Source: an uncultured bacterium
GTDB taxonomy: Bacteria; Cyanobacteriota; Vampirovibrionia; Gastranaerophilales; Gastranaerophilaceae
Direction of reading: 5' to 3'
Length of the DNA stretch: 64,000 nt
Assembly: GCA_903868125.1 (NCBI GenBank)
Contig: CAIPUE010000023.1
Coordinates: 19,977 to 83,976, forward strand
Part shown: in pieces, positions 817 to 31,526 of the stretch
Layout of the letters: each line of letters starts with the position of its first letter
How positions within the stretch are numbered: the first letter of the stretch is position 1
Position numbers and translations under genes: made by a program
Notes under the pieces: model-generated
What the model saw: only the letters and a program-made list of their open reading frames with translations
What the model was told of the DNA's origin: nothing
Database searches by the model: none

Positions 817-817
817 T

Positions 818-7000: not shown

Positions 7001-7008
7001 TTTAATAG

Positions 7009-7102: not shown

Positions 7103-7118
7103 ACTTCCAAGGTCGGAC

Positions 7119-7463: not shown

Positions 7464-7484
7464 TTTTTTTACGAAAGGGTTTTT

Positions 7485-8888
7485 ATGAAAATTGCGCTGA
7501 TTCCGATAGATAATCGACCCGTTTGTTACAATTTGGCGCAAGAAATAGCAAATATAGACAATGGTTTGGAACTTTTTTTACCTGACAGAAAACTTTTAGG
7601 CTCACTTCGTTCAATTGCGGATATTGAGGGGATTTTGAATTGGCTTACAAATCTTGAAAATGTAGATGCAATCATTGTTTCACTTGATACCATTGCTTAT
7701 GGGGGTTTAATCTCATCAAGAAGAAGCAAAGACAATCTTAACGAAATTAAAATCAGAGTAGAAAAATTTAAGGATAAATTCAAAGGGAAAGTTTATGCTT
7801 TTTCAAGTATAATGCGGATTTCTAATAACAACATCAATGAAGAGGAAAAAAAATATTGGGACAATTTCGGTACAAAAATATTTGAATATTCTTATAATTT
7901 TCACAAAGAAGGCATTGATAAAAGTGATATTCCTGATAAAATTTTAACCGATTATCTTGCTACAAGACAAAGAAATTTTCAAACAAACAAAATGTATCTC
8001 GGCTGGCTTGAGGAAGGAATATTTGATACGCTTGTATTTTCAAAAGATGATTGTGCGGAATTTGGGCTTAATGTCTTGGAATCTGAAATTTTAGACAGAA
8101 TAATTAAAGAAAAAAATCTCCCTGCATTTGTAAAAACCGGTGCGGACGAAATTCCTTTGACGCTTATGGCACGCGCAATTACTGATTGGAAGTGTAAAGG
8201 TTGTGAGGCGCCAAAAATTTCTGCGAAATTTTTGGCGCCTCAACATAAAGATTTAATTTCTCATTACGAAGATATTTCTATCGAAAAAAGTGTTCAGGCA
8301 CAAATTGAACTTGCAGGTTGGAAGTTGGCAAACGAGCAAGAGTCAGATATAGTCTTAGTTGTGAACAACTTTGAACAAAATCAGGGCGAAATTGTTATGA
8401 ATATTAAAACAAAGCCTTTCAGTGAAAAGTTTGAATTCCCCCAAAAGCCTTTTATGATAGCGGATGTAAGATTTGCAAACGGGTCTGATAACAAATTTGT
8501 TGCTAAAATATTAAAAAAACAGATAGATTTTGAAAATTTTTACGGGTACAGCGCTTGGAATACAAGTGCAAACAGCTTAGGTAGTTTAATTTGTGCCGGT
8601 ATTGTGAGGTTTTTGGCTCAAGATTTTAACGAAGAAGCGTTTAAAAAACTCCAGATGGTAAGATTTTTGGATGATTGGACTTATCAGGCGAATGTTAGGC
8701 AGGGGCTAAGGGGTAAACGGGAAACGGTAAACGGTAAACGGAATGAGCCAAGACCTGATGTCAGGAAGTTAAAAAAGCTTATGCTTCCTTATGAAAAAAA
8801 GTTGCAAAAGATTTTTGGGATAAAACCTGAAATAAAATATCAATTCCCATGGAAACGATTTTTTGAAGTGGAAATCGGGGTTAAGTGA
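7485..8888 (+). CDS. DUF4127 family protein
   Basis: 467 aa. The N-terminus MKIALIPIDNRPVCYN...DAIIVSLDTIAYGGLISSR matches the DUF4127 pattern (IPLDERPCN ... D.L.YGGL..SR). Confidence 0.7.
   Translation: MKIALIPIDNRPVCYNLAQEIANIDNGLELFLPDRKLLGSLRSIADIEGILNWLTNLENVDAIIVSLDTIAYGGLISSRRSKDNLNEIKIRVEKFKDKFKGKVYAFSSIMRISNNNINEEEKKYWDNFGTKIFEYSYNFHKEGIDKSDIPDKILTDYLATRQRNFQTNKMYLGWLEEGIFDTLVFSKDDCAEFGLNVLESEILDRIIKEKNLPAFVKTGADEIPLTLMARAITDWKCKGCEAPKISAKFLAPQHKDLISHYEDISIEKSVQAQIELAGWKLANEQESDIVLVVNNFEQNQGEIVMNIKTKPFSEKFEFPQKPFMIADVRFANGSDNKFVAKILKKQIDFENFYGYSAWNTSANSLGSLICAGIVRFLAQDFNEEAFKKLQMVRFLDDWTYQANVRQGLRGKRETVNGKRNEPRPDVRKLKKLMLPYEKKLQKIFGIKPEIKYQFPWKRFFEVEIGVK
8711..8741 (+). repeat. heptamer array inside a CDS (translated as GKRETVNGKRN)
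   Basis: GGGTAAACGGGAAACGGTAAACGGTAAACGG within 7485..8888. Confidence 0.9.
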
Positions 8889-8890
8889 GT

Positions 8891-9048
8891 GGACGGGTGA
8901 ACGGTAAACAGTGAACGGTAAACGGCGAGGTCGTTAAAGTAGGGTGGGTTCCCTAACCCACCGACAATAAACGCAGAGGAAGCAAAAAGCAAAAAGTAAG
9001 CAAGAACCGCAAAGCTGTTAAACTCTTCGACTATTCAACTGTTCGACT
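8891..9048 (+). repeat. composite intergenic repeat B (heptamers, GTAG hairpin, AAGTAAGCAAGAAC box, octamer array)
   Basis: Heptamers 8891-8925. GTAGGGTGGGTTCCCTAACCCACCGACAATAAA at 8939-8971. Box at 8994-9007. CTCTTCGA CTATTCAA CTGTTCGA at 9023-9048. Confidence 0.9.
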
Positions 9049-9061
9049 AAAAAGGCAGACA

Positions 9062-9616
9062 ATGAGCAATATAGACATACTAATACTGGCAATAGCACTT
9101 TCGATTGACGCATGCGTTGTGTCATTTTCTAACGGGTTGGTTTTTGCGCAAAATAAGCGTATTAATTCTCTTATGCTTGCTTCTTCTGTTGGTTTTTTTC
9201 AATTTTTAATGCCTGTTATCGGCTTTTTTTTGGCACAAAGTGTTAACAAATACGTTGAACCTTATGACCATTGGATTGTGTTTGGAATTTTTGTTTTGTT
9301 GGGAGCAAAGTTTATCAAGGATTCTTTCAAAACGGAAAAAGAGGAAAAACTCAATTGCTATCTTTGTTTCAGCTATATAATGCTTGTATCTGTTGCAACA
9401 AGTATTGACGCATTAGGGGCAGGGGTTTCGATTGCGTTTACGGGAACGAAAATTTTATTTCCGGCACTCGTAATCGGGGTGGTTACCTTTTTTAATTCAC
9501 TTTTGGGATTTTGGGGCGGACATTTATTCAAAAAATTCCCGACGAGGAATTTAGAAATCTCGGGTGGACTAATTTTAATCGGACTTGCGTTTAAGATTTT
9601 GTTTGAGAGTTTTTAA
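9062..9616 (+). CDS. mntP: manganese efflux pump MntP (two DUF204 repeats)
   Basis: 184 aa, about 6 TM helices. The repeated motifs LAIALSIDACVVSF and VATSIDALGAGVSIAF are typical of MntP. Confidence 0.8.
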   Translation: MSNIDILILAIALSIDACVVSFSNGLVFAQNKRINSLMLASSVGFFQFLMPVIGFFLAQSVNKYVEPYDHWIVFGIFVLLGAKFIKDSFKTEKEEKLNCYLCFSYIMLVSVATSIDALGAGVSIAFTGTKILFPALVIGVVTFFNSLLGFWGGHLFKKFPTRNLEISGGLILIGLAFKILFESF

Positions 9617-9649
9617 TATCGATTTTTGGGGTGAGAAGAGCAAGTTTAG

Positions 9650-10171
9650 TTAATTCTTAAGCACGCCCCAAGCTCTAATCCTGCCACGTTCGTATTTGAC
9701 CAAATAATATTCACCCTCAACATCATATTCAAGTGTTGCATTCGTGTAAATTTCAGGTTCCTCAGCCATTTTCCCCTCTCTTATAAGCTTTTTGTTCTGC
9801 TTTTCTTTTTTTGTCTGCTCTTTTTGAGATTTTCTTAAAGATTTTTTGTCCATTGGCTGAGTCGCTTGCATTTGATTTTTATCCTCTTCAAGTTTAAATA
9901 CGGGAAATGTCGCAATAATTTTTTGACTTTGGGTTAAAATCAAAATTTGTCTGTCTTCGGACAAAAGAAGTTCATAATACCCCGGCATGATTGCGTTTCC
10001 ATCCAAATCATAAATAGGATTTATAATCATTAAATTAGGCTGGTCAGATGATTTGGGGCCATATTTTGAAAATGATTTATAGCTATCGTTAATCCCCGCA
10101 GGATAAATATAAGGTCCTCTTGCGGGCAGAAGTTCTTCTATGGTCTTAACTTGTGCGATTTCAATTCCCAT
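9650..10171 (-). CDS. hypothetical protein
   Basis: 173-aa ORF with ATG start, downstream of rnpA on the same strand. K/E-rich central segment. No recognisable domain. Confidence 0.5.
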   Translation of the reverse strand: MGIEIAQVKTIEELLPARGPYIYPAGINDSYKSFSKYGPKSSDQPNLMIINPIYDLDGNAIMPGYYELLLSEDRQILILTQSQKIIATFPVFKLEEDKNQMQATQPMDKKSLRKSQKEQTKKEKQNKKLIREGKMAEEPEIYTNATLEYDVEGEYYLVKYERGRIRAWGVLKN

Positions 10172-10181
10172 TTCGGCTAGT

Positions 10182-10541
10182 TTATCCTCTTATATTAGTC
10201 AATAAGTTATAAATTATTTCTTTCATTTTTGAAAAATCATGTTCTAATGCACGTTCAAATCCCACAAAAATAAAGGAAAGATATTGTTGTGATTTAGGGA
10301 TTTTTTCTTCTTTTAATAATAATCTATAACTTTCTCTCATCAGGCGTTTTAGGCGATTTCTTTTAACCGCGCGTTTGTGAGTTTTTTTACTTACAACAAA
10401 TCCGGCTTTGGTTGTGAATGAGGAATCGGTTTTCTTCTTGCCGACCCATAAAACCACCCCCGCAATACAGTAAGAGTGTTTTATTCTGTATGTAGCATTA
10501 AATGCCGATTTCTTTTGTAATCTGAATTGTTTTTTAAGCAT
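10182..10541 (-). CDS. rnpA: ribonuclease P protein component
   Basis: MLKKQFRLQKKSAFNATYR... followed by a basic KRAVKRNRLKRLMRE motif. It lies downstream of rpmH. The track ORF is trimmed to the ATG at 10541. Confidence 0.85.
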   Translation of the reverse strand: MLKKQFRLQKKSAFNATYRIKHSYCIAGVVLWVGKKKTDSSFTTKAGFVVSKKTHKRAVKRNRLKRLMRESYRLLLKEEKIPKSQQYLSFIFVGFERALEHDFSKMKEIIYNLLTNIRG

Positions 10542-10619
10542 ATTCAAATATTCGCATAAAAAATGCGCCATGTCCAACGGATTCGGCGCATTTTTAAATA
10601 CTGAAACTTTATTATGGAA

Positions 10620-10772
10620 TTAAGCTCTTTTGCTTCCTGACACAGCAAGTTTATGGCGACCTCTTGCTCTGCGTCTGTTTAAAACAGCTTGTCCACCGGG
10701 GGTTGACATTCTCGCTCTAAACCCGCTTACTCTTTGTCTTTTTATTTTTGTTCCTTCTAGTGTGCGTCTCAT
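10620..10772 (-). CDS. rpmH: 50S ribosomal protein L34
   Basis: [47 protein letters not shown] at 10772 with AAGGAGAA upstream. The rest of track ORF 10620..11054 is not coding. Confidence 0.9.
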
Positions 10773-10806
10773 TTCAAAATTCTCCTTTTTGTTATATAGT
10801 ATATTG

Positions 10807-10835
10807 ATAATATTACAGAAATACTTAATAGTCAA
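10807..10835 (-). promoter_or_regulatory. candidate sigma-70 promoter of rpmH-rnpA
   Basis: On the minus strand: TTGACT (10835-10830), 17-nt spacer, TATTAT (10812-10807), about 35 nt upstream of the rpmH ATG. Confidence 0.4.
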
Positions 10836-10863
10836 TGGCAAATAGGAAAGAAGGTTAATTAAT

Positions 10864-11688
10864 ATGAACGAAACAGAAATAAAATCAGGCTTCAAATTAG
10901 GATTTATTGGGTGCGGTAAAATGGCAAGCGCAATAATCAAAGGTGTTTTGGATTCAAAATTTTTAAAGCATGATGATATTTCAGCATCAGAAATTAATAA
11001 TGAACTTGCGGCTTGGAAAAAAATGGAGTTGAATATTGAAGTTTTTACGGACAATAATATTATCGCTAAAAATTCTAATATAATTTTTCTTGCAACAAAG
11101 CCTCATTTTATAAAAGATGTTTTAAAAGAAATCAAAGGAGAATTAACAAAAAATAAATTAATTGTTTCAATTGCTGCTGGAGTGAGCACAAAAACTATTG
11201 AAGATGCTATCGGTAAGGATATTGCGGTGATTCGGGTAATGCCAAACGCTCCGGCTATGATAATGGAGGGTATGAGCGGTATTGTTAAAGGTAAATTTGC
11301 ATCAGACGCCAACGTGGAATTTGTTCAAGAACTTTTGTCCAAAATAGGAAAATGTATTGTGCTGGAGGAAGATAAAATTGACGTATTAACGGCGATTTCA
11401 GGTTCAGGTCCTGCGTTTTTTTATCAGATAATCAATGAAATGGCACTTGCAGGAGAAAAATTGGGACTGGATTATGAAAAATCAATTATTTTGGCAGCTC
11501 AAACAGCAATAGGTTCAGCAAAATTAATGCTTCAAAGTGACCTTTCGCCTGAAGAATTAGTCAAAAGTGTCGCAACAAAGGGCGGGTGTACTGAAGTCGG
11601 AATTGATTTTATGAATAATCAAAATACTGAAAAATTATTTTTTGAGCTGATTAAACATACCGCCGAAAAGGCAAAAGCTTTGGGATAA
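10864..11688 (+). CDS. proC: pyrroline-5-carboxylate reductase
   Basis: 274 aa. Rossmann motif [12 protein letters not shown], and a C-terminal dimerisation region with the [17 protein letters not shown] motif. Confidence 0.9.
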
Positions 11689-11714
11689 CTTTTAAACTTT
11701 TTGACTTCTTAACC

Positions 11715-11750
11715 AAAAAGGCTTTGATTTTTAAATCAAAGCCTTTTTTA
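11715..11750. terminator. bidirectional intrinsic terminator between proC and 11772..12851
   Basis: AAAGGCTTTGATTT / AAATCAAAGCCTTT hairpin, with a T-run 3' of the stem on the + strand and an A-run 5' of it (a T-run on the - strand). Confidence 0.7.
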
Positions 11751-11771
11751 TATTAATGAAAGGAATTTTAT

Positions 11772-12851
11772 TTATGCTTTCTTCTGTGTTTCCGCAGTTT
11801 TTTCAGCATCTGTCGCTACAGGTGCAGGAGGTGCTGTTGTTGCGGGTGTCGGAGCAGGGATGTCAGCAACCTGTGCTAACTTTTCCAATGCCTTTGTCGC
11901 CGCTTGCTGAACATTTGCATCCTGATCTTTCTTAGCAACCGTAAACAAAGTTGTTAAGTCTTGTTTGTATTCAGGACGTTGAATATAGCTCAAGGCATCA
12001 ATCCCCGAAGCTCTTACCATTGGGTTCGGATTTGTTTTAACCTGTTCCACAATGCCAGCGGCACCCGGAAGTTCAGTTAAAGGAACAACTGTATTGTTTA
12101 TTTTTTCTATCTCTGAGCCGTACAATTTTTGTAAAATCGCCACGGTGTAAATTGAGTATTGTTTGTTTCTTTCAGCTTGTTCCATTGGAGTGATTTTATT
12201 TGCTTCCGCTGTTTCGGCTTCGGTCACTGTTTTACCACCCATAATTTTTTCTCTGATTTGAAGTTGTTGAGGAGTAGGACCTTCTAATTTTGTTGTATCT
12301 TTACTCATTATTCCCAACAATGTGTCAATGATTTTTACATCCAACAATTCAGTGGCTTTGTCAGGTGAATTTTGCGACATATCAGCGATTGATTCCATTG
12401 CTTTAGCCTGTACTTCATAATCAGGACTTGTTAACTTTGTTATAAATTCATTTAAATCAATTTTAGGAGTTACAACTTCCGGTGCTTTAACTTCCACTTG
12501 TTGCGCAGGAGCAGGTGCTACAGGTGCCGGCGCTGCAACAGGGACAACCGCCGCTTGATTAATACTCGGTTGAATTATTACCGGTGGTGGAACTGGCGGT
12601 ACTTCTTGTACTGCAGGAGGTGAACTTACCTGCTGAGGCTCTTGTTGTGGTTTATAAATTGATTGTTGAGGCATTTCGTAAACCTGAGCTTGAGGATAAG
12701 CATAAATCGGTGCAGTTACTGGTGCCGAAGCAGGAGCTTGTGAACCTGGAGTATTGACTTGAGGGTTGTGAATATCAATTTTTACAGCATTATAATTCGG
12801 TTGTGGAGCTGTTTGACATTGTGTGGCTTGTGTTAGTGGGACTTGCATCAT
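11772..12851 (-). CDS. P/Q/A-rich protein with C-terminal HEAT-like repeats, hypothetical
   Basis: Low-complexity Pro/Gln/Ala N-terminal half. The C-terminal half has HEAT/PBS-lyase-like helical repeats (..ASGIDALSYI..DANVQQAATKALEKL). The start is set to ATG 12851 rather than the upstream TTG. Confidence 0.5.
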   Translation of the reverse strand: MMQVPLTQATQCQTAPQPNYNAVKIDIHNPQVNTPGSQAPASAPVTAPIYAYPQAQVYEMPQQSIYKPQQEPQQVSSPPAVQEVPPVPPPVIIQPSINQAAVVPVAAPAPVAPAPAQQVEVKAPEVVTPKIDLNEFITKLTSPDYEVQAKAMESIADMSQNSPDKATELLDVKIIDTLLGIMSKDTTKLEGPTPQQLQIREKIMGGKTVTEAETAEANKITPMEQAERNKQYSIYTVAILQKLYGSEIEKINNTVVPLTELPGAAGIVEQVKTNPNPMVRASGIDALSYIQRPEYKQDLTTLFTVAKKDQDANVQQAATKALEKLAQVADIPAPTPATTAPPAPVATDAEKTAETQKKA

Positions 12852-13224
12852 TTTTTTTCCTTTCAAAAAATAACTCTATTATTTACATTCTACTATTTAA
12901 ATAACCGTGAAGAATATAAGTTGCTAGTTTAAACTTTTTTTTTAATAATTTGTAACATTTCATTTTGGGAAATGCCTTGGATGGCTATAGGTTGGGGGTT
13001 TTCATTCAATTAAATATTTTGATTTTAAATAATGTTTGTTATAGAAAAATAAATTAATTTATGTAAATATACAAAAATTATATGTTATGTGTATATTGAA
13101 TTGGGGTATATGTTTAATATAACCAATCTCTTTTTCTTTATTTTCTCCTCCACTCCTTTATCCAATCTAAAGTTTTTAGCCGTTCATACGGCTATTTTTA
13201 TGCGTAGAAATCTCGCATAAATAG

Positions 13225-13327
13225 AGCCCACTGCACAAGTATAGAAAATTTGTTTTGACTGCTTTCTCCGAAATCTTTGATTTCGAGAGAAATGTCCCTA
13301 TGCGGGTTCTTAATTGTGCAGTGGGCT
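13225..13327. mobile_element. MITE-like element, copy 1 (14-bp perfect TIR, 7-bp flanking direct repeat)
   Basis: AGCCCACTGCACAA (13225-13238) / TTGTGCAGTGGGCT (13314-13327). TAAATAG is present on both flanks (13218-13224, 13328-13334). Internal hairpin CTCCGAAATC/GATTTCGAGAG. Confidence 0.8.
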
Positions 13328-13389
13328 TAAATAGTTAAAAAGCTTTTTTACTTTGTGACATTCATATATTGTTCAAAGCAGGTAATTTA

Positions 13390-13812
13390 TCAAATACCAA
13401 TGGCGTTATCGGATGCTTCTTGCAGACGTTTAATTAAATCCTGTTGAAAGTTGTTTTGCTGTAATGTTTTAATAATATCATTCGAAGTGCCTTGAGCAAT
13501 GGTAAATTCACCTTTAATGTTGGGTTTTGAATATTTCATTACTAAAATAATTTTTTCTAAGCGGGTTTTTCTTGAAATGAAACTAAACTCGTCAAAAACT
13601 ATGCTACCTTCTGGATTAGAAAAAGCCTGTTCAAAGGCGAATTTACTATTTTTCAAGGCGTTAGATACTTCTGATATTGCTTTATCCAGAGGCATTACCT
13701 TAGTAAATTCATCTAATCTGTGGCTTTTAAAAGCAGGATTAGCATGTGCATTATTTGTTTGCCTAAGCTTATAAGAATTGCCATGTTCGTAAGGGGTAAT
13801 TTTTATAATCAT
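13390..13812 (-). CDS. hypothetical small protein; candidate partner (antitoxin/immunity) of the upstream RSH-like gene
   Basis: 140 aa. ATG at 13812 lies 8 nt after GGAGG (13821-13825). It is 68 nt downstream of 13896..15503 on the same strand. The FISRKTRLEKIILVMKY segment resembles FMSRERILQRAEKVLGY in the 337..816 product. Confidence 0.55.
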   Translation of the reverse strand: MIIKITPYEHGNSYKLRQTNNAHANPAFKSHRLDEFTKVMPLDKAISEVSNALKNSKFAFEQAFSNPEGSIVFDEFSFISRKTRLEKIILVMKYSKPNIKGEFTIAQGTSNDIIKTLQQNNFQQDLIKRLQEASDNAIGI

Positions 13813-13895
13813 TTTTAGAACCTCCAAGCTTTGTAATTATAATAACAAAAACAAAATAATAAAAAAGTTGCTAGTGAGCTTAATAAAGCTTAATG

Positions 13896-15503
13896 TTAAT
13901 TGGATAAATTTTCAACCCCTGTAGCAAAAGCTACTTGTGATTTCAAATTGAAAGGAAGTTTAATAGAACCCGGAGCTAAGCTTTTAGCTTGTTTATATGC
14001 AACTTCCAAATTTTCTACACTCAAAATAGGATTTGTTCCGTCTGGCAGAGTTGGTTTTGTAGCTGATTTACCAAATTCTTTCGCTTGTGCGTAAACGAAT
14101 CTGTTATATATGTATTTTTCGTATTCTATAAATTGTTCTTCGTCCAATTTCTTGATAGCTTTTTGAATTCTAGCCAAAATAATACCTATCTGATTATTCC
14201 CCTTTGCAATATCTTTTCCCTCTCTTAAATCGTAAGGAATGTGTTCAATCTTTGCAAGATCATGAACATGTTCTCCTCTGATTTGAAGTTCAATTATGGC
14301 ACCGTTTTTAGACCTAATATTCATTTGAGTAGCGGTATAGCCCGAATGCTTTTCGGTAAACACACATTCCATAGTACCTGAAATATCCTGTATCTTTCTA
14401 ACTTGTGCTTCTGAGAAATAAAACTCGGTACTTCCTCCAAAATTACTGTTTGCCCCTCTGTAATTTTTAACTTTAAGTATTTCAATATCACCTTTTTTGA
14501 TTGCATTCACTAATGAGGTAACAATTTTGTTAATGCTCCTAGGGCTTACATCATTAAGGGTTAATCTTGCGCCATATAAATCTTGAACTTTATCTTTTAC
14601 TAAATCTTTATTTCTTGTAATTTCTTTTTTTTCAGCCAATAATTTTGATATTTTTATTTGTTTTATTTCATCTGAAAAATCGGCACAATTTTTAACTTTT
14701 TTAATCTTATGGTTGAGGTCTATAGTTCTTTCTTTAACCAATTTTTCGTATATAGAAAGTTCACATTTTGAACGACCCTTTAAAGAAGTTCTAAATTCTT
14801 CTGGCAGGGCTTCTTTGACTGCGTTAAAAGATTCTTCAAAATGCTCCTGTCCTTCTTTAAACAATTCATTGCTAAATTTTCTTAAGCTTCTTGGTTGAGT
14901 TACAAATTTCAATGCGTTATTTAAATTTGCTCTATAGTAGCCGGATTTAAAAACATCAAAGCTTTCTGTCGCAAGACTTTTTGAAGAATTAAAACATTTT
15001 TGTGTCGCAGTTAAAAAATTGAGTCCGTCTGTTTTGATATTAGCTTGTTTTAGAGAGCTTTTTGCTCCCATCATTGATAAGCCGATAGTGGAGGTTGCTC
15101 CGCCAATATCATAAAATGCTTTTTCAACATCATCATTGTTTTTAGCTTTTATTATTTTATAAACTCCATTACCTGCTTGAATTGCGCCCATACCGATGCC
15201 TGCTGCCACCAATATAGGTGCCGCGGCACCTCCGGTTGCCGCAAGCAATATCATGCTTCCTGCAATCATCCCTGCCCCGATGGCAATGTTCTTGGGACTG
15301 GAAAACATGCTTGTAATTGGAGAAATTAAACCTTTTCCAAAATTTTTCATTGCTTCTGATGTGCTGAATTTTCCATCTTTAGATTTATCTAATTTGTCCT
15401 TAGAAAAATTAATATTTGCATTACAAACAGCTACATTTTCAGTTTTTTTATCCTGATATTTTGTATAACCGTTATGTGACAATTTTTCAATATATAAACT
15501 CAA
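13896..15503 (-). CDS. membrane-anchored RelA/SpoT (RSH)-like nucleotidyltransferase domain protein (toxSAS-like candidate)
   Basis: 535 aa. TTG start with a GAGGG SD. Gly/Ala-rich hydrophobic segments at aa ~72-115. The C-terminal half carries RSH synthetase motifs in order: GRSKCELSIYEKLVKE, QDLYGARLTL, KVKNYRG, HSGYTATQMNI, IIELQIRGEHVHDLAKIEHIPYD. Confidence 0.6.
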   Translation of the reverse strand: MSLYIEKLSHNGYTKYQDKKTENVAVCNANINFSKDKLDKSKDGKFSTSEAMKNFGKGLISPITSMFSSPKNIAIGAGMIAGSMILLAATGGAAAPILVAAGIGMGAIQAGNGVYKIIKAKNNDDVEKAFYDIGGATSTIGLSMMGAKSSLKQANIKTDGLNFLTATQKCFNSSKSLATESFDVFKSGYYRANLNNALKFVTQPRSLRKFSNELFKEGQEHFEESFNAVKEALPEEFRTSLKGRSKCELSIYEKLVKERTIDLNHKIKKVKNCADFSDEIKQIKISKLLAEKKEITRNKDLVKDKVQDLYGARLTLNDVSPRSINKIVTSLVNAIKKGDIEILKVKNYRGANSNFGGSTEFYFSEAQVRKIQDISGTMECVFTEKHSGYTATQMNIRSKNGAIIELQIRGEHVHDLAKIEHIPYDLREGKDIAKGNNQIGIILARIQKAIKKLDEEQFIEYEKYIYNRFVYAQAKEFGKSATKPTLPDGTNPILSVENLEVAYKQAKSLAPGSIKLPFNLKSQVAFATGVENLSN

Positions 15504-15564
15504 AAATGACCCTCGAAATAAAATATCCTTATTAATTTAAAAACATTTTCTTTCGAAAAATTGC

Positions 15565-16026
15565 CTATAAAAGCGCCTTAATAACTATTTTCTTTACATA
15601 ACTCGGAGATTTTGTTGCTATAGACGGTTTATGGGCATCGTTGGGGAATAAAATCAGAAATTCTTTTGCTTTTATTTGTACAAATTCAGGCATGCAATTT
15701 GTATTTGGAGACAGAAAAACAATATCCTTATTTTCATCATAATTTGTACTTTCTGAAAAATTTTCTATCCCCAAAACCCCGATTTGTTCTTCACCTTTCA
15801 CGATATATTGAATATCAATATATTTTTTGTGGGCTTCAAATTGTCCTTCAGCAATTGGTTTTGATAAATAATCTTGAACTATTGCGAAAACTTCATTACC
15901 CGAAATTTTATATTTTCCATTTGCAAGTACAGAAAAATCCGTGTCGGCAAGATATTCTAACCCGAGTTTTATATGTTCTGATAAATCAGAATAATTCTTT
16001 GCATTTTTAATATTGTCTTTTATCAC
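15565..16026 (-). CDS. YhcH/YjgK/YiaL family (DUF386) protein
   Basis: 153 aa. GKYKISGNEVFAIVQDY...FEAHKKYIDIQYIVKGEEQIG...FLILFPNDAHKP matches the family pattern. Confidence 0.7.
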   Translation of the reverse strand: MIKDNIKNAKNYSDLSEHIKLGLEYLADTDFSVLANGKYKISGNEVFAIVQDYLSKPIAEGQFEAHKKYIDIQYIVKGEEQIGVLGIENFSESTNYDENKDIVFLSPNTNCMPEFVQIKAKEFLILFPNDAHKPSIATKSPSYVKKIVIKALL

Positions 16027-16048
16027 GGGTTTATTTTATCATAAAGTC

Positions 16049-16315
16049 ATGGAAAAAAAATACTATATTTATGTAATTTTAACAGCAGACAAAACTTTTT
16101 ACTGTGGGTACACCGATGATGTTGAAAAACGCTTTGAGGTTCACAAGTCAGGGAAAGGTGCAAAATATACCCGTTCGCATAAGCCTTTAAAAATAGTTTA
16201 TACGGCATGCTTTGATACAAAATCGGAAGCGATGAAAGAAGAATGTCGCATAAAAAGTTTAAGTAGAATTGATAAAATGGAGTTTATAAAGAAATTTGGA
16301 AATTATCAGGAATAA
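16049..16315 (+). CDS. GIY-YIG nuclease superfamily protein (UPF0213/YhbQ-like)
   Basis: YYIYVILTADKTFYCGYTDDVEKRFEVHKSGKGAKYTR is a GIY-YIG signature. The track ORF is trimmed to ATG 16049. Confidence 0.75.
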   Translation: MEKKYYIYVILTADKTFYCGYTDDVEKRFEVHKSGKGAKYTRSHKPLKIVYTACFDTKSEAMKEECRIKSLSRIDKMEFIKKFGNYQE

Positions 16316-16430
16316 AAAATCTTGATTTTTTCAAAAAACTTAACATAATTTTTTCAAAATACTTGTAAATATCTTTTCTTTGAGATATGTTGTAAATAGC
16401 GCTAGTAATTTAAGATAAGGAAATAAAAAA

Positions 16431-16622
16431 ATGTCCAGAGAATGTGAAATATGCGGCAAAACGCCCTTGAAAGCAGCGAAATTAACTTTTTCGCACAAGC
16501 AGAACGTACACCGTCAAGCACCTAACTTGCAGTCAGTTAAAGCTAACTTAAACGGTACAGTTAAAAGAATTAAAGTTTGTACTTCTTGCATTAAAGCCGG
16601 AAAAGTTCAAAAAGCGGTTTAA
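16431..16622 (+). CDS. rpmB: 50S ribosomal protein L28
   Basis: 63 aa. MSRECEICGKTPLKAAKLTFSHKQNVHRQAPNLQ is typical of L28. A hairpin terminator follows. Confidence 0.9.
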   Translation: MSRECEICGKTPLKAAKLTFSHKQNVHRQAPNLQSVKANLNGTVKRIKVCTSCIKAGKVQKAV

Positions 16623-16641
16623 TTTAATTAATTAATTTTAA

Positions 16642-16674
16642 GGCCGGACAGAAAATTTTGTCCGGTCTTTTATA
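16642..16674 (+). terminator. intrinsic terminator after rpmB
   Basis: CCGGACA (16644-16650) / TGTCCGG (16659-16665), followed by TCTTTTAT. Confidence 0.65.
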
Positions 16675-16751
16675 ATTTTACTTAATATTTAGTAAAATTA
16701 TTCTAATGTTTGTAATATAATTTAAACAATAATTATGTAGGAGGATAAAAT

Positions 16752-17645
16752 ATGCCGAAACGTTATGATGCAGGTGAAGTAATAACTGCAATGGTTACAC
16801 CTTTTAACAAAAATAAGGAAATTGATTACGATAAAGTCGAAGAATTGGCAAAATATCTTGTTGCAAATGGCTCCGATGCAATTTTGGTTGCAGGAACAAC
16901 AGGCGAAAGCCCGACTTTAACTCATGAAGAAGAACTTGAGTTGCTTTCAACCGTAAAAAGAGCTGTCGCAAATAAAGCAAAAATTGTTATGGGAACAGGT
17001 TCAAATTCAACCGAAACAGCTCTCAAAATGACGAAATTAGCTCAAAAAGAGGGTGCAGACGCAATTCTTTCGGTCGTTCCTTATTACAATAAGCCATCGC
17101 AAGCGGGTATGTTTGCTCACTTTTCAGCAGTGGCTGAAAGTACTACTTTACCGATAATCTTATATAACATTCCATCAAGAACAGGGGTTAACATGGCGGT
17201 TGAAACAATTGCAAAACTTGCAAATAAATATTCGAATATTGTTGCATTGAAGCAAAGTTTTGGGGATATGGATTTTATTTCGGAGTTGAAACTTGCTTGT
17301 CCTGAAGATTTTATGATTTATTCAGGCGATGACAGTCTAACATTGCCGATGATGGCGTTGGGGGCAGATGGCATAATTTCGGTTGCTTCGCATATTGTGG
17401 GTAATGAGATTAAGTCTATGATACACAATTTTAAGTCAGGACAGTTGCATGCCGCAAAAAATATGCACTTAAAGCTTTACCCGATTTTCAAAAAAATATT
17501 TATGGCTCCAAATCCTGTTCCTGTAAAATCCGCACTCGCAAAACAAGGGATAATAAATGATTACGTAAGACTTCCACTTGTTCAGCTTAATGAAGAAGAA
17601 AGAGCAGAATTATATAGTGTTTTGGATTCTTTCAACAAGGATTAG
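16752..17645 (+). CDS. dapA: 4-hydroxy-tetrahydrodipicolinate synthase
   Basis: 297 aa. TAMVTPF, GTTGESPTL, YYNKPSQ and ILYNIPSRTG motifs. Confidence 0.9.
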   Translation: MPKRYDAGEVITAMVTPFNKNKEIDYDKVEELAKYLVANGSDAILVAGTTGESPTLTHEEELELLSTVKRAVANKAKIVMGTGSNSTETALKMTKLAQKEGADAILSVVPYYNKPSQAGMFAHFSAVAESTTLPIILYNIPSRTGVNMAVETIAKLANKYSNIVALKQSFGDMDFISELKLACPEDFMIYSGDDSLTLPMMALGADGIISVASHIVGNEIKSMIHNFKSGQLHAAKNMHLKLYPIFKKIFMAPNPVPVKSALAKQGIINDYVRLPLVQLNEEERAELYSVLDSFNKD

Positions 17646-17701
17646 CCTAAGTGGGTTATTTGTTTTAGCAAGTTTTTGGTAAAATGAGATTGGGTAAAAA
17701 A

Positions 17702-17802
17702 GGTAAAGGGTGAACGGTGAACGGTGAACGGTAAACAGTAAACGGTGAACGGCGGCAACAAGCAAGATGTGTAAAACTGTTCAACTGTTCGACTATTCAA
17801 CC
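17702..17802 (+). repeat. composite intergenic repeat C (7 heptamers plus an octamer array)
   Basis: GGTAAAG GGTGAAC GGTGAAC GGTGAAC GGTAAAC AGTAAAC GGTGAAC at 17702-17752. CTGTTCAA CTGTTCGA CTATTCAA at 17777-17802. Confidence 0.9.
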
Positions 17803-17912
17803 AATAGCGAGTGCATAAAGGCTAGTAAGCCAGCATTTCGAAAAAATAAAGTAGTAGTTCTAAAAAGCAAGTAAAGGCGCCAACAATAAAAGTGGGTGTT
17901 ATGGTGTAAAAG

Positions 17913-19220
17913 ATGAAGAATAAGAAGGCAATGTTTTGGGCGATTGTGTTGATAGTGGTGGTTTGTGCCGGCATTATTGTTGTTAAGCCTACAAAGTTAG
18001 GATTGGATTTAGTAGGAGGTTCAAGGCTTGTGCTTGAGGCTCAAACTACTGATACGGTTGCAAAAATTACTCCTGAAATGATGGATAGTTTAAGATTTGC
18101 GATTGAAAACCGTGTAAACAAATTGGGCGTTGCAGAAACTGTTGTTCAGCAGACCGGCGATAAAAGGCTTTTGGTGGAAATCCCGAATGTTTCTGACTTA
18201 TCTAAGGCAAAAGAATTTTTGGGTGAGACTGCGGCATTGGAGTTCAAAAAAGAAGGAACGCCGATTAATGGTCAACCTGTGTGGCTAAGTACGGGATTAA
18301 GCGGAAAAGATTTGAGCAAGGCACTTTTAAACACATCTCAAAATGGTCAGTGGGTGGTTGATTTACAATTTAATGATAAGGGAACAAGAAAATTTGCAGA
18401 TTTGACACAAAAACTTGTAGGCAAACCGATGGCTATATTTTTTAACGGAGAAATGCAGTCTGCACCAGTGATAAGAGAAGCAATTATCGGCGGAAACGCT
18501 CAAATTTCGGGTGGCGACAATGGGTTTCAATACGAAGAAGCTAAAAAAATGGTTGATTTATTAAATGCCGGAGCTTTACCTGTTCCAGCTAAAATTATTG
18601 AAGAAAACACTGTTGGTCCGACTTTGGGGGCTGATAGTATTGCAAAATCTAAAACGGCTGGAATTATCGGGCTTGGGATTGTTATGTTATTTATGATTGC
18701 GTTCTACAAATTACCCGGACTGATTGCGGATATAGCGTTGATTTGTTACAGCATAATTTTGTTTGCGTTATTTAAAACAATTCCTGTCACGCTTACTCTT
18801 GCAGGTATTGCCGGATTTATTCTAAGTATAGGGATGGCGGTTGACGCGAATATATTAATTTTTGAAAGAACAAAAGAAGAATTGAAAGCCGGTAGGACAT
18901 TGTTTACTGCAATAAATGCGGGGTTTGACAGAGCGTTTACAAGTATTTTTGATTCAAACATGTCAACAATTATTACCTGCATAATTCTTTATATGCTTGG
19001 AACTAGTGTTGTAAAAGGGTTTGCACTTACTTTGGCTTTAGGGGTCATTGTTTCAATGTTTAGTGCGATTACAATTACAAAAAACATTATGCACCTTGCA
19101 TTCGGAACAGGTGAGCTTAAATATCCTCAATTATTTGGATTAAAAAAGGAAGAAATCGGAAAAGCATTTGAGGTAAAAGAAACAAAACGTGAAAAAGCAA
19201 AATTCGGAGTATTAGATTAG
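17913..19220 (+). CDS. secD: protein translocase subunit SecD
   Basis: 435 aa. LGLDLVGGSRLVLEA, periplasmic domain, C-terminal 6-TM bundle (GIAGFILSIGMAVDANILIFER). Confidence 0.9.
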   Translation: MKNKKAMFWAIVLIVVVCAGIIVVKPTKLGLDLVGGSRLVLEAQTTDTVAKITPEMMDSLRFAIENRVNKLGVAETVVQQTGDKRLLVEIPNVSDLSKAKEFLGETAALEFKKEGTPINGQPVWLSTGLSGKDLSKALLNTSQNGQWVVDLQFNDKGTRKFADLTQKLVGKPMAIFFNGEMQSAPVIREAIIGGNAQISGGDNGFQYEEAKKMVDLLNAGALPVPAKIIEENTVGPTLGADSIAKSKTAGIIGLGIVMLFMIAFYKLPGLIADIALICYSIILFALFKTIPVTLTLAGIAGFILSIGMAVDANILIFERTKEELKAGRTLFTAINAGFDRAFTSIFDSNMSTIITCIILYMLGTSVVKGFALTLALGVIVSMFSAITITKNIMHLAFGTGELKYPQLFGLKKEEIGKAFEVKETKREKAKFGVLD

Positions 19221-19311
19221 GTAAACGGTAAACGGTAAACGGTAAACGGTGAACGGCAAGAAGTTCCAAGGCATTCAAGTAGGTCGGGCTTTCCAGCCCG
19301 ACGACATAAAA
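19220..19311 (+). repeat. composite intergenic repeat D in the secD-secF spacer (5 heptamers plus a GTAG hairpin)
   Basis: (GGTAAAC)x4 GGTGAAC starts at the last base of the secD stop codon. GTAGGTCGGGCTTTCCAGCCCGACGACATAAAA at 19279-19311. Confidence 0.9.
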
Positions 19312-19352
19312 ACAATAAGCACTTTCAATTATTCGGCTAAAAAGGAGATAAA

Positions 19353-20330
19353 ATGGCAAGTACAGAAACAATCGGTAAAAAACCTTTAATAGATATAGTA
19401 AAATACAGATTTTGGTGGTTCGCATTGTCGACCGTTCTTATTATTCCGGGGATTGTGGCGATGATTTATTCAAGCGTGATTTATCCAAACCATGCGCCGT
19501 TAAAAGTCGGTATTGATTATACAGGCGGAACAATTTTGCAATATTCCGTCAACCAACCGGTCAGTGGCAATGAGATAACACAGACAAGGGAGGCTCTCGA
19601 GGCGAAAGGGATTGAAAACCCGTTTTTACAGATAATTAATGTTAATCCTGAGAGCGCGAAAAATAATAAAATAAAATCAATTATCTCTGTAAGAACAAAA
19701 TTTATCGGAGAACAGGATACTCAAGCACTTAATAATGTTTCGAGTGTAATAAACGCCGAATATCCTAATTCGCAACTTATTCAAGTAAGTTCAATAGGTC
19801 CAACCTTGGGCGCAGAACTTTTCAAAAACGCTCTATTTGCACTTGCTTTGGCATCTTTGGGAATAGTTATTTATTTGACAATAAGATTTCAACTGGATTT
19901 TGCGATTGCGGCAATTTTGGCATTATTTCATGACGCGTTGTTTGTTGTGGGGTGTTTTTCAATTTTCGGGCTTTTATTCAATGTCCAGATTGATGGGCTT
20001 TTTATAACAGCAATCCTTACTGTTATAGGGTTTTCTGTACATGATACAATCGTTGTTTTTGATAGAATCAGAGAGAATTTAAGATACTATTCAAAGAAAA
20101 TGTCGTTCGGTGAAATCGTAAACGTCAGCATAAACCAGACTTTTGTAAGAAGTATTAATACTTCTATGACTACTTTGATAACCTTAACTGCTCTGTACTT
20201 TTTTGGCGGGGTAACAACCAGAGATTTTGTTTTGGCAATGATTTTGGGTATCGCAATTGGAACATATTCAAGTATTTTCTTTGCGAGTATGGCGATAGAT
20301 GTTTGGCGTGAATACAAAGCAAAAAAGTGA
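19353..20330 (+). CDS. secF: protein translocase subunit SecF
   Basis: 325 aa. GIDYTGGT motif and 6-TM domain (HDALFVVG...GFSVHDTIVVFDRIRE). Confidence 0.9.
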   Translation: MASTETIGKKPLIDIVKYRFWWFALSTVLIIPGIVAMIYSSVIYPNHAPLKVGIDYTGGTILQYSVNQPVSGNEITQTREALEAKGIENPFLQIINVNPESAKNNKIKSIISVRTKFIGEQDTQALNNVSSVINAEYPNSQLIQVSSIGPTLGAELFKNALFALALASLGIVIYLTIRFQLDFAIAAILALFHDALFVVGCFSIFGLLFNVQIDGLFITAILTVIGFSVHDTIVVFDRIRENLRYYSKKMSFGEIVNVSINQTFVRSINTSMTTLITLTALYFFGGVTTRDFVLAMILGIAIGTYSSIFFASMAIDVWREYKAKK

Positions 20331-20382
20331 AAGGTTTAAAGGTTGAGATGGTTGAAAAGCCGAAAAGTCGAATAGTTTTGCA

Positions 20383-20419
20383 GTTCTTGCTTTACTTCTC
20401 ACTTTTCACCTCTCACCTC
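20383..20419 (-). repeat. composite repeat E (inverted AAGTAAAGCAAGAAC box plus GGTGAGA-type heptamers)
   Basis: The reverse complement reads GAGGTGAGAGGTGAAAAGTGAGAAGTAAAGCAAGAAC. It lies between secF and the MFS gene. Confidence 0.85.
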
Positions 20420-20426
20420 AATAATT

Positions 20427-21770
20427 ATGGAATTAGAAAAAAAAGAATCTATATTTGAAAAAGCCCGAGGTTATTCGGCACTGTTTGCGAACCGTGATTT
20501 TTGCATGTTGTGGTTGGCGCAGATTTTTTCGCAATTTGCGGACAGAATAATTTTTGTTGTGTTTGTAACCATAATCGCAATCAATTTTGACCCGAGCGGA
20601 AAATCAACGAGTTTGCAAAGTTGGCTTTATATCGCATTTACAATCCCTGCAATACTTCTTACGGCGATTGCAGGGGTATTTATTGATATTTGGAATAAAA
20701 AAATAGTCATGATAATTACAAATATTCTTCGAGGCTCCATTATTCTGCTTTTGCCGTTTTTTGACAAAACGCTTATGTCCCTTTATGTTTTAGCTTTTGC
20801 GCTTTCAGCCGTAACCCAGTTTTTTGTGCCTGCGGAGGCTTCAATTATCCCTTCGGTGGCTAATAAATACCAATTAATGACCGCAAATTCGCTTTTTGCA
20901 ACGACGATGATGGGGTCGCTGATTTTTGGGTTTGCTCTTGGGGATCCTATGATAAACATTTTCGGGATTGATTATGTCCATTTAGGAATCGGGCTTTTCT
21001 TTTTCCTTTCGGCTTTTTGCCTGATTTTTGTAAGATATAAACCTGTGGCAAAAATTACGGGAGCTAAAACGAACTTTTGGGCGGATATGAAAGAGGGCTT
21101 AGTTTATATAAAAGGTGCGCCGATAGTGCGTTCTGCTATGTTAAAACTGGCGGCATTGTTTTCTATAATTGTTATGTTGTCAATCATGTCAATCGGGTTA
21201 AGCCAAAAATATCTTTATCCTAATAATCCAGCGATGGGTGCACAAAAGTTTGCTTATATCGTAGTTTTTTGTGGAATAGGCATGGTCTTTGGAGCTTTTT
21301 TGGTCGGTCAGCGCTTTAGAAAGGTTGAAAAACATCTTTTGGTTTATATAGGAATTTTTACTTGTGGGTTATCGTTGTTAATGTTTTCACTATTGCCTCT
21401 AATCCCTCAATTAAGTGTTTTTCACTTTAAAACAAGGTCTGTATTGATTTTTTACTTGGAGCAGTTTGATTTGACTTATCCGATGTTGTACAGCTATGTT
21501 ACGGCTGTTCTAATAGGTATTTCTACAGCATTTGTCGCAATTCCTACCCAAACAATTTTGCATACCGAGATTGACCCGCAGGTTAGGGGAAAAGTGTTCG
21601 GGATTTTGTTTACGCTTTTGAGCACGGCATCGGCATTTCCTGTTTTGGTTGCGGCTTGGGGTGCTGAAATGGTCGGCGTTGCCAAGATGATTTTCCTAAT
21701 CGCTTTTCCTGTCTTGATTTTTGGGGTTTATAAGCTGATTACCTATCGCAGACGGTTTTTGATAAGTTGA
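20427..21770 (+). CDS. MFS transporter
   Basis: 447 aa, about 12 TM helices. The N-terminal NRDFCMLWLAQIFSQFADRI is typical of the MFS_3/EntS-like group. Confidence 0.75.
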   Translation: MELEKKESIFEKARGYSALFANRDFCMLWLAQIFSQFADRIIFVVFVTIIAINFDPSGKSTSLQSWLYIAFTIPAILLTAIAGVFIDIWNKKIVMIITNILRGSIILLLPFFDKTLMSLYVLAFALSAVTQFFVPAEASIIPSVANKYQLMTANSLFATTMMGSLIFGFALGDPMINIFGIDYVHLGIGLFFFLSAFCLIFVRYKPVAKITGAKTNFWADMKEGLVYIKGAPIVRSAMLKLAALFSIIVMLSIMSIGLSQKYLYPNNPAMGAQKFAYIVVFCGIGMVFGAFLVGQRFRKVEKHLLVYIGIFTCGLSLLMFSLLPLIPQLSVFHFKTRSVLIFYLEQFDLTYPMLYSYVTAVLIGISTAFVAIPTQTILHTEIDPQVRGKVFGILFTLLSTASAFPVLVAAWGAEMVGVAKMIFLIAFPVLIFGVYKLITYRRRFLIS

Positions 21771-21850
21771 GACCACTGCACAATTAAGAACCCGCATAGG
21801 GACATTTCTCTCGAAATCAAAGATTTCGGAGAAAGCAGTCAAAACAAATT
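21771..21850. mobile_element. MITE-like element, copy 2 (inverted relative to copy 1; far end degenerate)
   Basis: GACCACTGCACAATTAAGAACCCGCATAGGGACATTTCTCTCGAAATCAAAGATTTCGGAGAAAGCAGTCAAAACAAATT is the reverse complement of 13248-13325. It starts 1 nt after the MFS stop codon. Confidence 0.85.
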
Positions 21851-22436: not shown

Positions 22437-22548
22437 GAGGCTTATAAGATTCTCTCACTCACTTTGTTCCGCCGACAGGCTCACAAGGCTCGTGCTTTGA
22501 CTGTTCGCTTTATCAAAATTGTATATTTTTGAATTATTCAGCGTCCTC
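22437..22548 (+). repeat. 113-bp interspersed repeat, copy B
   Basis: See 1446..1558. The left TIR is degenerate. It lies 125 nt upstream of the 22673 start. Confidence 0.9.
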
Positions 22549-31451: not shown

Positions 31452-31526
31452 TCTTATTTGTGGTACTATTTAGTTTAAAAGTGGAAACGAGGAACGAAAA
31501 AGTAAGATAATTTTTAGGAGTGCAAA

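Follow-up and report, generated by a model that had tools for sequence, protein, structure and literature searches.

Comparative analysis of a 64,000-nt stretch of contig CAIPUE010000023.1 (hereafter the window, meaning the whole stretch of DNA that was analysed; G+C content of ~34%) revealed ten tandem arrays of the heptamer GGTRAAC and its variants at nine loci spread across 1-55 kb. The orientation of their arms is strictly tied to reading frames, the forward arm carrying stop codons in all frames and the reverse arm carrying none, and their occupancy shifts fast between relatives through gain, loss and replacement at fixed permissive sites. With moderate confidence, we read the arrays as non-autonomous palindromic elements built of simple-sequence repeats, which would form a bloom in one lineage and would be shaped by slippage, copying and reading-frame selection. 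The arrays are not a new kind of system; they belong with heptameric simple-sequence repeats and with mosaics that resemble short tandemly repeated repetitive (STRR) sequences and bacterial interspersed mosaic elements (BIMEs).

At NCBI, homologues sharing 68% identity with the DUF4127 protein of the window bear the names 'Candidatus Gastranaerophilales bacterium' and 'Candidatus Gastranaerophilaceae bacterium' and, judged from these names, the host is a member of Candidatus Gastranaerophilales (Melainabacteria/Vampirovibrionia), a non-photosynthetic sister lineage of Cyanobacteria; the names of PriA protein clusters gave no information on the taxon. The loci related to the window originate from human and animal gut metagenomes; loci from other contigs and genomes carry L numbers, and orthologues of PriA and DUF4127 carry numbers of the form P0xxx.

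Searching the window for the pattern GGTRAACGGTRAAC with at most one mismatch returned 24 matches, compared with a mean of 0.03 in dinucleotide-preserving shuffles, and Tandem Repeats Finder (TRF) reported 8 arrays of period 7, each of 2.8 copies or more, across the 64 kb. The window arrays show the properties of long simple-sequence repeats, namely a unit of 5-11 nt, a head-to-tail arrangement and a length greater than composition predicts. The region of 22-48 kb, including a low-G+C sugar-biosynthesis cluster, is devoid of GGTRAAC-type arrays. A sequence-only reading of this DNA had listed forward and inverted GGTRAAC arrays, a GGTGAGR variant, CTNTTCRA octamers, a AAGTAARCAAGAAC box and GTAG-headed hairpins; all of these entries are present (Table 1), exactly where they had been placed or a few bases away, and the excess over shuffled sequence given above is extreme. 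Two arrays had been overlooked, at 3816-3846 (reverse) and 8711-8741 (forward). The arrays are not assembly or chimera artefacts, a possibility which the same reading had raised against itself: three independently assembled contigs from other samples (L120, L123 and L124) agree with the window at 99.98-100% identity all along the arrays, with zero gaps across 35 kb of alignments between the window and same-strain contigs, and therefore the arrays are neither artefactual nor hypervariable at the strain level.

As a separate observation, short-read contigs begin or end inside arrays, as is the case for L120 (which ends at window position 19249), for the 3' end of L205 (within a reverse arm) and for the 5' ends of L062, L072, L084 and L118. 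Such contig breaks suggest that many genomic copies exist.

Composite architecture and predicted folding

Six aligned copies, one of them from a relative, share a collinear plan in which the modules follow the order A (forward arm), REP, B, YGCAAAAC and C (reverse arm), where REP is a hairpin resembling repetitive extragenic palindromic (REP) sequences. The forward arm consists of GGT(T)RAAC units, with GGTGAGR 7-mers and GGTTGAAC 8-mers as variants, and is followed by an optional hairpin with a GTAGG head (e.g. GTAGGGTGGGTTCCCTAACCCACCGACA in copy R4, which has an identical counterpart in L207). The purine-rich B array ends in CAAGAAC and leads into the short YGCAAAAC junction, while the reverse arm consists of CTNTTCRA octamers, which are GGTTGAAC-type units in reverse complement. 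In relatives, complementary paired arrays lie downstream of the DUF4127 gene, namely (GTGAAYAG)3 - loop - (CTRTTCAC)n in L207 and (GGTAAAC)n - loop - (GTTTACC)n in L205 and L206, and for this reason we read the octamers as the reverse arm of a palindrome in which each arm is a tandem array. Individual copies are 34-190 nt long, with a mutual identity of 76-83% over 42-59 nt. Within the R5 forward arm, AAAGGTAAA at 17698 is a candidate for a local proto-unit.

Two strict copies and one relaxed copy of the GTAGG hairpin were found in the window, compared with a shuffle mean of 0.5, and six distinct strict sites (seven matches, two of them overlapping) occur in the 21 kb of L207, with more hairpins in L126, L206 and L173. 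The stems vary between copies while their complementarity is kept by compensatory changes, as in REPs, and the hairpins stand with other short motifs in a conserved order, as in the mosaics of BIMEs. At five sites, the hairpin stands behind an array and keeps the same orientation relative to it.

By RNA folding, most of the intergenic two-armed copies are predicted to form long imperfect hairpins between cistrons. The z-scores of the folds relative to shuffled sequence were -2.6 for R5, -2.6 for R7, -4.1 for the L206 copy and -2.6 for the L207 copy, and in the fold of R1 the forward arm pairs with the reverse arm at 1208-1225. The copies inside genes were unstructured in the fold (radical-SAM, z = -0.3; priA, z = +2.1). 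Across the whole window, Rfam returned zero matches at the gathering threshold, and a tRNA/tmRNA scan found none. A reading of the composites as intrinsic terminators was rejected, with 0 of 18 terminator-like sites in 800-20700 coinciding with a composite.

Table 1. Positions of arrays and composite modules. Coordinates are those of the window unless a locus is named; R labels denote individual copies
Feature	Position	Strand	Description
R1 forward arm	1085-1142	+	8-mers GGTTGAAC/AGTTGAAA grading into 7-mers GGTAAAC (TRF 1113-1142, 4.3 copies)
R1 purine-rich B array and CAAGAAT box	1143-1171	-	reads AAAAGTAAAAAGTAAACAAGAATTACAAA on the - strand
R1 REP-like hairpin	1172-1207	-	GTAGGGTGCGGATTTAACTGCACCGACAATAA on the - strand; consensus matches strict GTAGG hairpins
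R1 reverse arm	1208-1225	-	CCGTTCACCGTTTACC
Radical-SAM/DUF2344 in-gene purine-only array	3775-3815	+	AAAAAGG etc.; encodes KKEKEKRETEVES
Radical-SAM/DUF2344 in-gene reverse arm	3816-3846	-	(CCGTTTA)x4; encodes RLPFTVNRLP, linker just before the DUF2344 domain
DUF4127 in-gene forward array	8711-8741	+	GGTAAAC GGGAAAC GGTAAAC GGTAAAC; encodes GKRETVNGKR
R4 forward arm	8889-8927	+	starts 0-8 nt after the DUF4127 stop codon
R4 REP-like hairpin	8939-8966	+	GTAGGGTGGGTTCCCTAACCCACCGACA; 9-bp stem, 4-nt loop
R4 B array	8977-9008	+	AAGCAAA AAGCAAA AAGTAAG CAAGAAC
R4 reverse arm	9016-9047	+	octamers CTNTTCRA
R5 forward arm	17698-17754	+	6-7 units; starts about 52-64 nt after the dapA stop
R5 reverse-arm octamers	17775-17802	+	pair with 17711-17736 in the fold (z = -2.6)
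R6 forward arm	19220-19257	+	GGTAAAC x4 + GGTGAAC; starts 0 nt after secD, first G being the last base of its stop TAG
R6 REP-like hairpin	19279-19306	+	GTAGGTCGGGCTTTCCAGCCCGACGACA
R6 degenerate reverse-arm octamers	19318-19341	+	precede the secF Shine-Dalgarno sequence
R7 forward-type 8-mers	20338-20380	+	GGTTGAGA, GGTTGAAA and the like; in the secF-MFS spacer
R7 box and GGTGAGR-variant reverse arm	20383-20419	-	box GTTCTTGCTTTAC; arm of TCTCACC type
R8 forward array	49188-49221	-	one-armed; starts 3 nt after the AdoMet decarboxylase stop (- strand gene)
priA in-gene GGTGAGR array	54853-54886	+	priA on the - strand; coding sense is the reverse arm, SSPLTSHPS
priA in-gene spacer and (CTTTTTC)n	54887-54937	-	purine array in coding sense; encodes KVKRKKEKDEQDPQN
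TRF period-7 arrays	1113-1142, 3816-3845, 8712-8741, 17709-17752, 19220-19256, 20394-20419, 49201-49217, 54857-54882		
TRF array given as 14-nt period	8897-8923		
TRF purine-/pyrimidine-rich period-7 arrays	3778-3802, 8980-8996, 1156-1171, 54905-54933		
TRF period-8 array	17775-17801		
Sequence-only list, GGTRAAC	1113-1142, 8889-8927, 17698-17754, 19220-19257	+	present
Sequence-only list, GGTRAAC inverted	1208-1225, 49188-49221		present
Sequence-only list, GGTGAGR variant	20392-20419 (inverted), 54853-54886		present
Sequence-only list, CTNTTCRA octamers	9016-9047, 17775-17802, 1085-1110		present
Sequence-only list, AAGTAARCAAGAAC box	8994-9007; inverted near 1149-1163 and 20383-20397		present
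Sequence-only list, GTAG-headed hairpins	8939-8966, 19279-19306; inverted 1172-1207		present
Gemmatimonadales palindrome examples	L015 7092-7225, L064 1458-1573, L081 3904-3995		

Reading frames, turnover and wider distribution

Since 7 and 3 share no common factor, three GGTRAAC units place TAA or TGA in every frame, while the complement, GTTYACC, is stop-free in all frames. Because of these all-frame stops, the forward arm is confined to short spacers just after stop codons: forward arrays start 0-64 nt after the stop of a co-directional gene (distances by gene in Table 1), and the R4 and R6 composites end right before the downstream Shine-Dalgarno sequence.

The sequence-only reading had placed all copies at gene ends or between genes, which did not hold, as three copies lie in frame within the genes for PriA, the radical S-adenosylmethionine (SAM)/DUF2344 protein and the DUF4127 protein. 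The open reading frames (ORFs) at 1972-5058, 7485-8888 and 53304-55607(-) run uninterrupted through these copies and were assigned by Pfam, in a scan that covered all 59 ORFs of the window, to radical-SAM/DUF2344, full-length DUF4127 and PriA, respectively. The copies that survive inside genes are either in the stop-free orientation or are forward arms lacking the critical T, and they sit in interdomain linkers. On the radical-SAM and priA coding strands, the reverse arm is preceded by a purine-only array, which is also incapable of forming stops, and the array peptide of PriA, SSPLTSHPS, lies immediately N-terminal to the Walker A motif. In the DUF4127 gene, G or A replaces T in unit 2 where an in-frame TAA would fall, and this replacement occurs in all four lineages examined, the window sharing it with three others down to 70% protein identity; for this reason, the insertion is likely to be old and kept open by selection. 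The radical-SAM linker of L207 holds a stop-purged forward arm (GGTAAAC AGAAAAC GGTAAAC AGTGAAA) followed by a reverse arm, which suggests that the purine-rich B arrays may be forward arms without their T; the purine-only array at 3775-3815 likewise reads as a forward arm that would have lost it.

Comparison with relatives revealed how quickly these sites change. Among 80 retrieved loci encoding SecD relatives, the secD-secF spacer measures 3-40 nt in most, while in the window, L126, L138, L153 and L171 the stop codon is directly followed by an array that differs from one to the next, in some cases with a GTAG hairpin behind it. Between secF and the gene of the major facilitator superfamily (MFS), L129 has a spacer of 18 nt and L138 has none; the spacer is filled by a minus-strand composite in the window and by a plus-strand composite in L126. 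Between filled and empty secD-secF and secF-MFS spacers no target-site duplication was found; the whole spacer differs. Among 120 PriA orthologues of 77-100% identity, all length variation falls at one site just before Walker A, which is short in 64 of them and holds at least six repeat classes among the rest: in-frame readings of TCTCACC, ATGCAAAG, GTTYACC or CCAACCCT arrays and, in some, readings of two other palindromic repeat families. In a 95%-identical relative, the priA DNA carries a GTTYACC array nested beside the TCTCACC array, and over 8 kb this priA array is the sole indel of at least 12 nt relative to the window. The DUF4127 orthologues P0131-P0133, P0152 and P0161 lack the array segment, and the radical-SAM linker shows three different arm combinations in three lineages. 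In these in-frame repeats of conserved proteins, which are missing from some orthologues or, in the radical-SAM linker, differ between lineages, the behaviour is that of Rickettsia palindromic elements (RPEs). Period-7 arrays number 8 in the 64-kb window and 13 in 474 kb of relatives, in sampled regions that are not matched, which points to a lineage-specific bloom.

Beyond the relatives, at least 119 loci with three exact GGTRAAC units were returned from 185,579 species-representative genomes; the statements on taxa and arrangement that follow refer to the matches listed, whose taxon list is a biased sample. The loci belong to many phyla, with Gemmatimonadales prominent, and are often (GGTGAAC)n - loop - (GTTCACC)n palindromes; adjacent inverted pairs run forward-then-reverse in 23 cases and reverse-then-forward in 1 (two-sided binomial p ~3e-6), and an ORF of at least 100 codons ends no more than 60 nt upstream of 54% of forward arrays versus 10% of random positions. 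In the viral collection, GGTRAAC was found at 29 loci versus 20, 17 and 12 for three composition-matched control heptamers. The idea that GGTRAAC is special for its presence in many phyla was weakened, with control heptamers nearly as common and the taxon list biased. Among L001-L119, high-G+C metagenome-assembled genomes of Gemmatimonadales contain many such intergenic palindromes (examples in Table 1), of which we know of no description.

The window and its relatives hold several further repeats and insertions. Three hairpins in succession (7008-7045, 7055-7102 and 7115-7164) make up a block of 165 nt (window 7005-7170) that stands just after the RNase E/G stop codon and has no Rfam match; it is absent from the orthologous site of L207, where the flanking genes are ~85% identical, and two copies with 94.5% identity lie elsewhere in L207 (360-523 and 15330-15494). 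It looks like a separate mobile structured element or a small RNA gene. In the radical-SAM ORF, a 372-nt in-frame insertion (4069-4441, aa 700-823 of ORF 1972-5058) encodes LPD3 ('large polyvalent protein-associated domain 3') and splits the DUF2344 domain; the L207 orthologue (928 aa) is without LPD3. A GC-rich nested palindrome, CCCTTGAGGG...CCCTCAAGGGGAGAGGGG, occurs at 50800-50960 of the window and at 12200-12440 and 5560-5625 of L207, and frame-preserving insertions of its family occur within the radical-SAM gene of L207 (peptide APSPLAGEGWGEG) and within some PriA orthologues (P0037, P0099 and P0110). A 103-nt direct repeat of 92% identity (1456-1558 and 22446-22548), upstream of a gene in both cases, could be a shared leader, promoter or small RNA. 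The array-free sugar cluster (31527-42978) is of low G+C and nonulosonic-acid-like, with Polysacc_synt_2, DegT, NeuB and CTP_transf_3 domains, and encloses a nucleotidyltransferase/HEPN pair of the MNT-HEPN toxin-antitoxin type (34400-35087). The 95%-identical relative L121 carries an extra two-gene cassette at 5863-6435, encoding an 84-aa protein and a Gp49/HigB-like protein, with none at window 59083-59105, and a perfect 25-nt inverted repeat with a 5-nt loop (63935-63989) lies just after the secretin gene.

Origin of the arrays

The origin that we favour, that of non-autonomous palindromic repeats blooming in one lineage, would involve three processes. The arms would lengthen, shorten and shift period through slipped-strand mispairing; recombination, template switching or an unseen trans-acting enzyme would place copies of whole units or single modules at new sites; and selection would filter the copies, so that forward arms remain behind stop codons while protein linkers hold versions free of stops. 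An effect on mRNA stability or translational coupling of the REP/BIME type would be a guess by analogy.

Several points weigh against this account. Its copying step was not observed, with no target-site duplication and no transposase or REP-associated tyrosine transposase (RAYT) in the window, and the copies have diverged (76-83% over 42-59 nt), so that nothing points to a recent burst. Slippage alone cannot account for the conserved junctions CAAGAAC-YGCAAAAC, which are non-repetitive, or for the 23:1 polarity of inverted pairs, and these two features are the chief grounds for keeping a mobile-element explanation alive. The folds of R4 (z = -1.6) and R1 (z = -1.9) just marginally beat shuffles, while R6 (19220-19341), in which the GTAGG hairpin alone forms, and R8 (49188-49221), a one-armed copy with no predicted structure, fold no better than shuffled sequence. 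Finally, gene boundaries are ORF-based, and 64 kb of the source genome was seen, so that genome-wide abundance is an extrapolation.

The first alternative, to which we assign a modest chance, is that the composites are selected cis-acting modules of intercistronic 3' untranslated regions which would make the upstream mRNA more stable, adjust translational coupling or recruit a protein that binds RNA or DNA; the stops in all frames and the Shine-Dalgarno-like cores GGTGA/GAGGTGA would then belong to that function. GAGGTGA is complementary to the 3' end of 16S rRNA. The consistent position of sense-orientation arrays 0-64 nt past stop codons, the forward-first polarity of 23:1 among the matches listed in other phyla, the predicted hairpins of several intergenic copies (z about -2.6 to -4.1) and the composites that stop just short of a downstream Shine-Dalgarno sequence all fit such modules, and post-transcriptional roles were proposed by the authors for TAACTGA repeats (PMC4679880). 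However, in the close relatives L129 and L138 the element is missing from the same operon junctions and nothing visible takes its place, one and the same site holds different unit sequences in different lineages, and the same modules occur, unstructured, within coding regions. Further arguments against a cis-acting function are that no canonical terminator is predicted at any composite, that no Rfam family matches and that composition-matched heptamers build arrays nearly as often.

A smaller chance is given to mobile units, either like REPs and BIMEs or like MITEs (miniature inverted-repeat transposable elements), moved by an enzyme encoded elsewhere (e.g. a RAYT/HUH Y1 enzyme recognising GTAG-type heads) that would use the tandem arrays as terminal inverted repeats or as sites to bind. 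A defined element of this type would account for the fixed module order with inverted ends, for the filling of the same short spacer in either orientation and for the 23:1 polarity, again among the matches listed in other phyla; the compensatory stem changes of the GTAGG hairpins, as in REPs, and the constant relative orientation of array and hairpin at five sites point the same way. The inverted arms resemble the terminal inverted repeats of MITEs, although they are repetitive and of variable length, unlike typical ones. Filled and empty secD-secF and secF-MFS spacers show no target-site duplication, however, and the copies lack the uniform length and high identity of MITEs (34-190 nt; 76-83%), differing greatly in both length and sequence. 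No transposase, RAYT, integrase or reverse transcriptase was found among the 59 window ORFs by Pfam, in line with the sequence-only reading, which had seen no transposase or RAYT, and no transposase or RAYT appears in the gene lists of eight related loci (L121-L124, L205-L207 and L286). Given the REP-like GTAG hairpins, a RAYT elsewhere in the source genome is possible. The heptamer mosaics also differ from the window's own MITE-like element, a 95-nt repeat that has the make-up of a conventional one: its inverted copies (13247-13341 and 21756-21850) are 94% identical, the first has a clean terminal inverted repeat of 12 nt at its ends (CCCACTGCACAA...TTGTGCAGTGGG), and a partial copy lies at 31405-31455.

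More doubtful still is the broader proposal that forward-loop-reverse heptamer palindromes constitute a distinct, cross-phylum class of self-propagating hairpins, with a dedicated trans enzyme that leaves no target-site duplication and with routine creation of new linkers in essential proteins; the enzyme might be, for example, a HUH/RAYT-like nuclease acting on GTAG/GTRA heads beside the hairpins.

Contingency loci, in which slippage of heptamers toggles neighbouring genes, are highly improbable. A 7-nt change in copy number does shift the frame, and simple-sequence repeats are the classic substrate of phase variation, but independent samples of one strain carry identical arrays, copies inside genes are degenerate and without exception in frame, and other heptamers were likewise judged not phase-variable (PMC4692102). 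Phase variation was rejected on the 0 gaps over 35 kb relative to same-strain contigs and on the associated genes, which are housekeeping genes (secD/F, dapA and priA) and not surface genes. That the arrays are assembly or chimera artefacts is next to inconceivable and was rejected, since the frequent breaks of short-read contigs in arrays (L120 at window 19249; L205 in the reverse arm) stand against the 99.98-100% agreement of L120, L123 and L124 and the homologous in-frame arrays of diverged relatives.

These findings bear on the origin and role of bacterial tandem heptamers, a question since the description of STRR sequences in 1990. Hundreds of closely related genomes in public gut metagenomes provide a natural experiment: the secD-secF, secF-MFS and DUF4127-mntP spacers and the priA and radical-SAM linkers are empty, filled or differently filled across relatives, and therefore the birth, growth, inversion and decay of arrays can be reconstructed site by site. 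The main value lies in this tractable data set on how such repeats arise and enter proteins. Through a reading-frame filter, simple-sequence elements can become fixed inside essential proteins (in priA, by the Walker A motif) and so provide a source of new linker peptides. In practical terms, arrays break short-read assemblies, and in-frame copies lengthen annotated proteins.

Comparison with known repeat classes

Literature searches for the exact array sequences gave one irrelevant match, apparently a primer, and searches for such repeats in Melainabacteria gave nothing relevant. According to the part of Mrazek (2007) relayed in PMC4679880, most prokaryotic genomes with abundant 5-11-nt repeats have heptamers as their commonest class of long simple-sequence repeat, and polymerase slippage is a possible cause of the heptamer excess. 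The TAACTGA heptamers common to Beggiatoaceae, Cyanobacteria and Bacteroidetes contain stops in the forward direction, are translatable in reverse and are tolerated between protein modules (MacGregor 2015, PMC4679880), so that the logic of orientation and frame is already published for other heptamers. The window arrays resemble them in their patchy cross-phylum distribution, all-frame forward stops, translatable reverse strand and tolerance at gene ends or between modules. In contrast, TAACTGA repeats lie mostly just upstream of start codons, are almost exclusively direct and have no predicted structure (PMC4679880), whereas the window arrays follow stop codons and are usually paired with an inverted arm.

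The GGGNATC heptamers of Xanthomonas and Nostoc lie 0-50 bp past stop codons on the coding strand, are mostly transcribed and are neither phase-variable nor linked to insertion sequences (Rehm et al. 2015, PMC4692102, which also mentions STRR heptamers). The window arrays have in common with them a place between co-oriented ORFs, a lack of phase variation and no link to insertion sequences. GGGNATC differs as a G-quadruplex former that prefers four units, whereas GGTRAAC lacks G-tracts and forms Watson-Crick hairpins with the inverted arm.

STRR heptamers were reportedly described from heterocystous cyanobacteria by Mazel and colleagues in 1990, and a load of about a hundred or more copies per genome counts among their traits. 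The window shares with them short dispersed tandem arrays of 7 nt at many loci (ten arrays at nine loci), mostly intergenic and without an associated transposase or known function, in a host from the sister lineage of Cyanobacteria. It differs in its units, GGTRAAC/GGTGAGR, which are not known to match STRR1-3, in its host, a member of Gastranaerophilales and not a photosynthetic or heterocystous cyanobacterium, and in its arrays, which are arms of hairpin mosaics and in some cases lie in frame inside genes. The earlier description as STRR-like heptamer arrays in modular composites is fair in view of the period of 7, the strong over-representation and the fixed module order, and the label is right as a description, but the host is not a classical cyanobacterium, the elements are not purely intergenic and heptamer arrays are not specific to cyanobacteria.

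The nearest structural analogues are REP/BIME, RPE and pneumococcal BOX elements. REPs and BIMEs are enterobacterial mosaic elements with RAYT transposases, for which effects on mRNA stability and translational coupling have been reported. The window composites share their GTAG(G) head, imperfect palindrome, compensatory stem variation and arrangement of hairpins in fixed-order mosaics of short motifs between co-transcribed genes; they differ in that the REP module is optional, in the flanking tandem 7- and 8-mers, which are not a BIME feature, and in that a RAYT was not found in the window ORFs or the eight related loci. RPEs are likewise small palindromes in frame within conserved, even essential proteins, to which they add surface or linker peptides, yet they form an unrelated sequence family, and the window elements are simple-sequence arrays in which frame compatibility comes from orientation or the purging of T. 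The BOX element shares a modular A-B-C plan with variable internal tandem units and pairing ends, and is intergenic and non-autonomous, but its boxA-boxB(n)-boxC modules are unique sequences of 45-60 nt, whereas the pairing ends of the window composites are arrays of 7- and 8-nt units.

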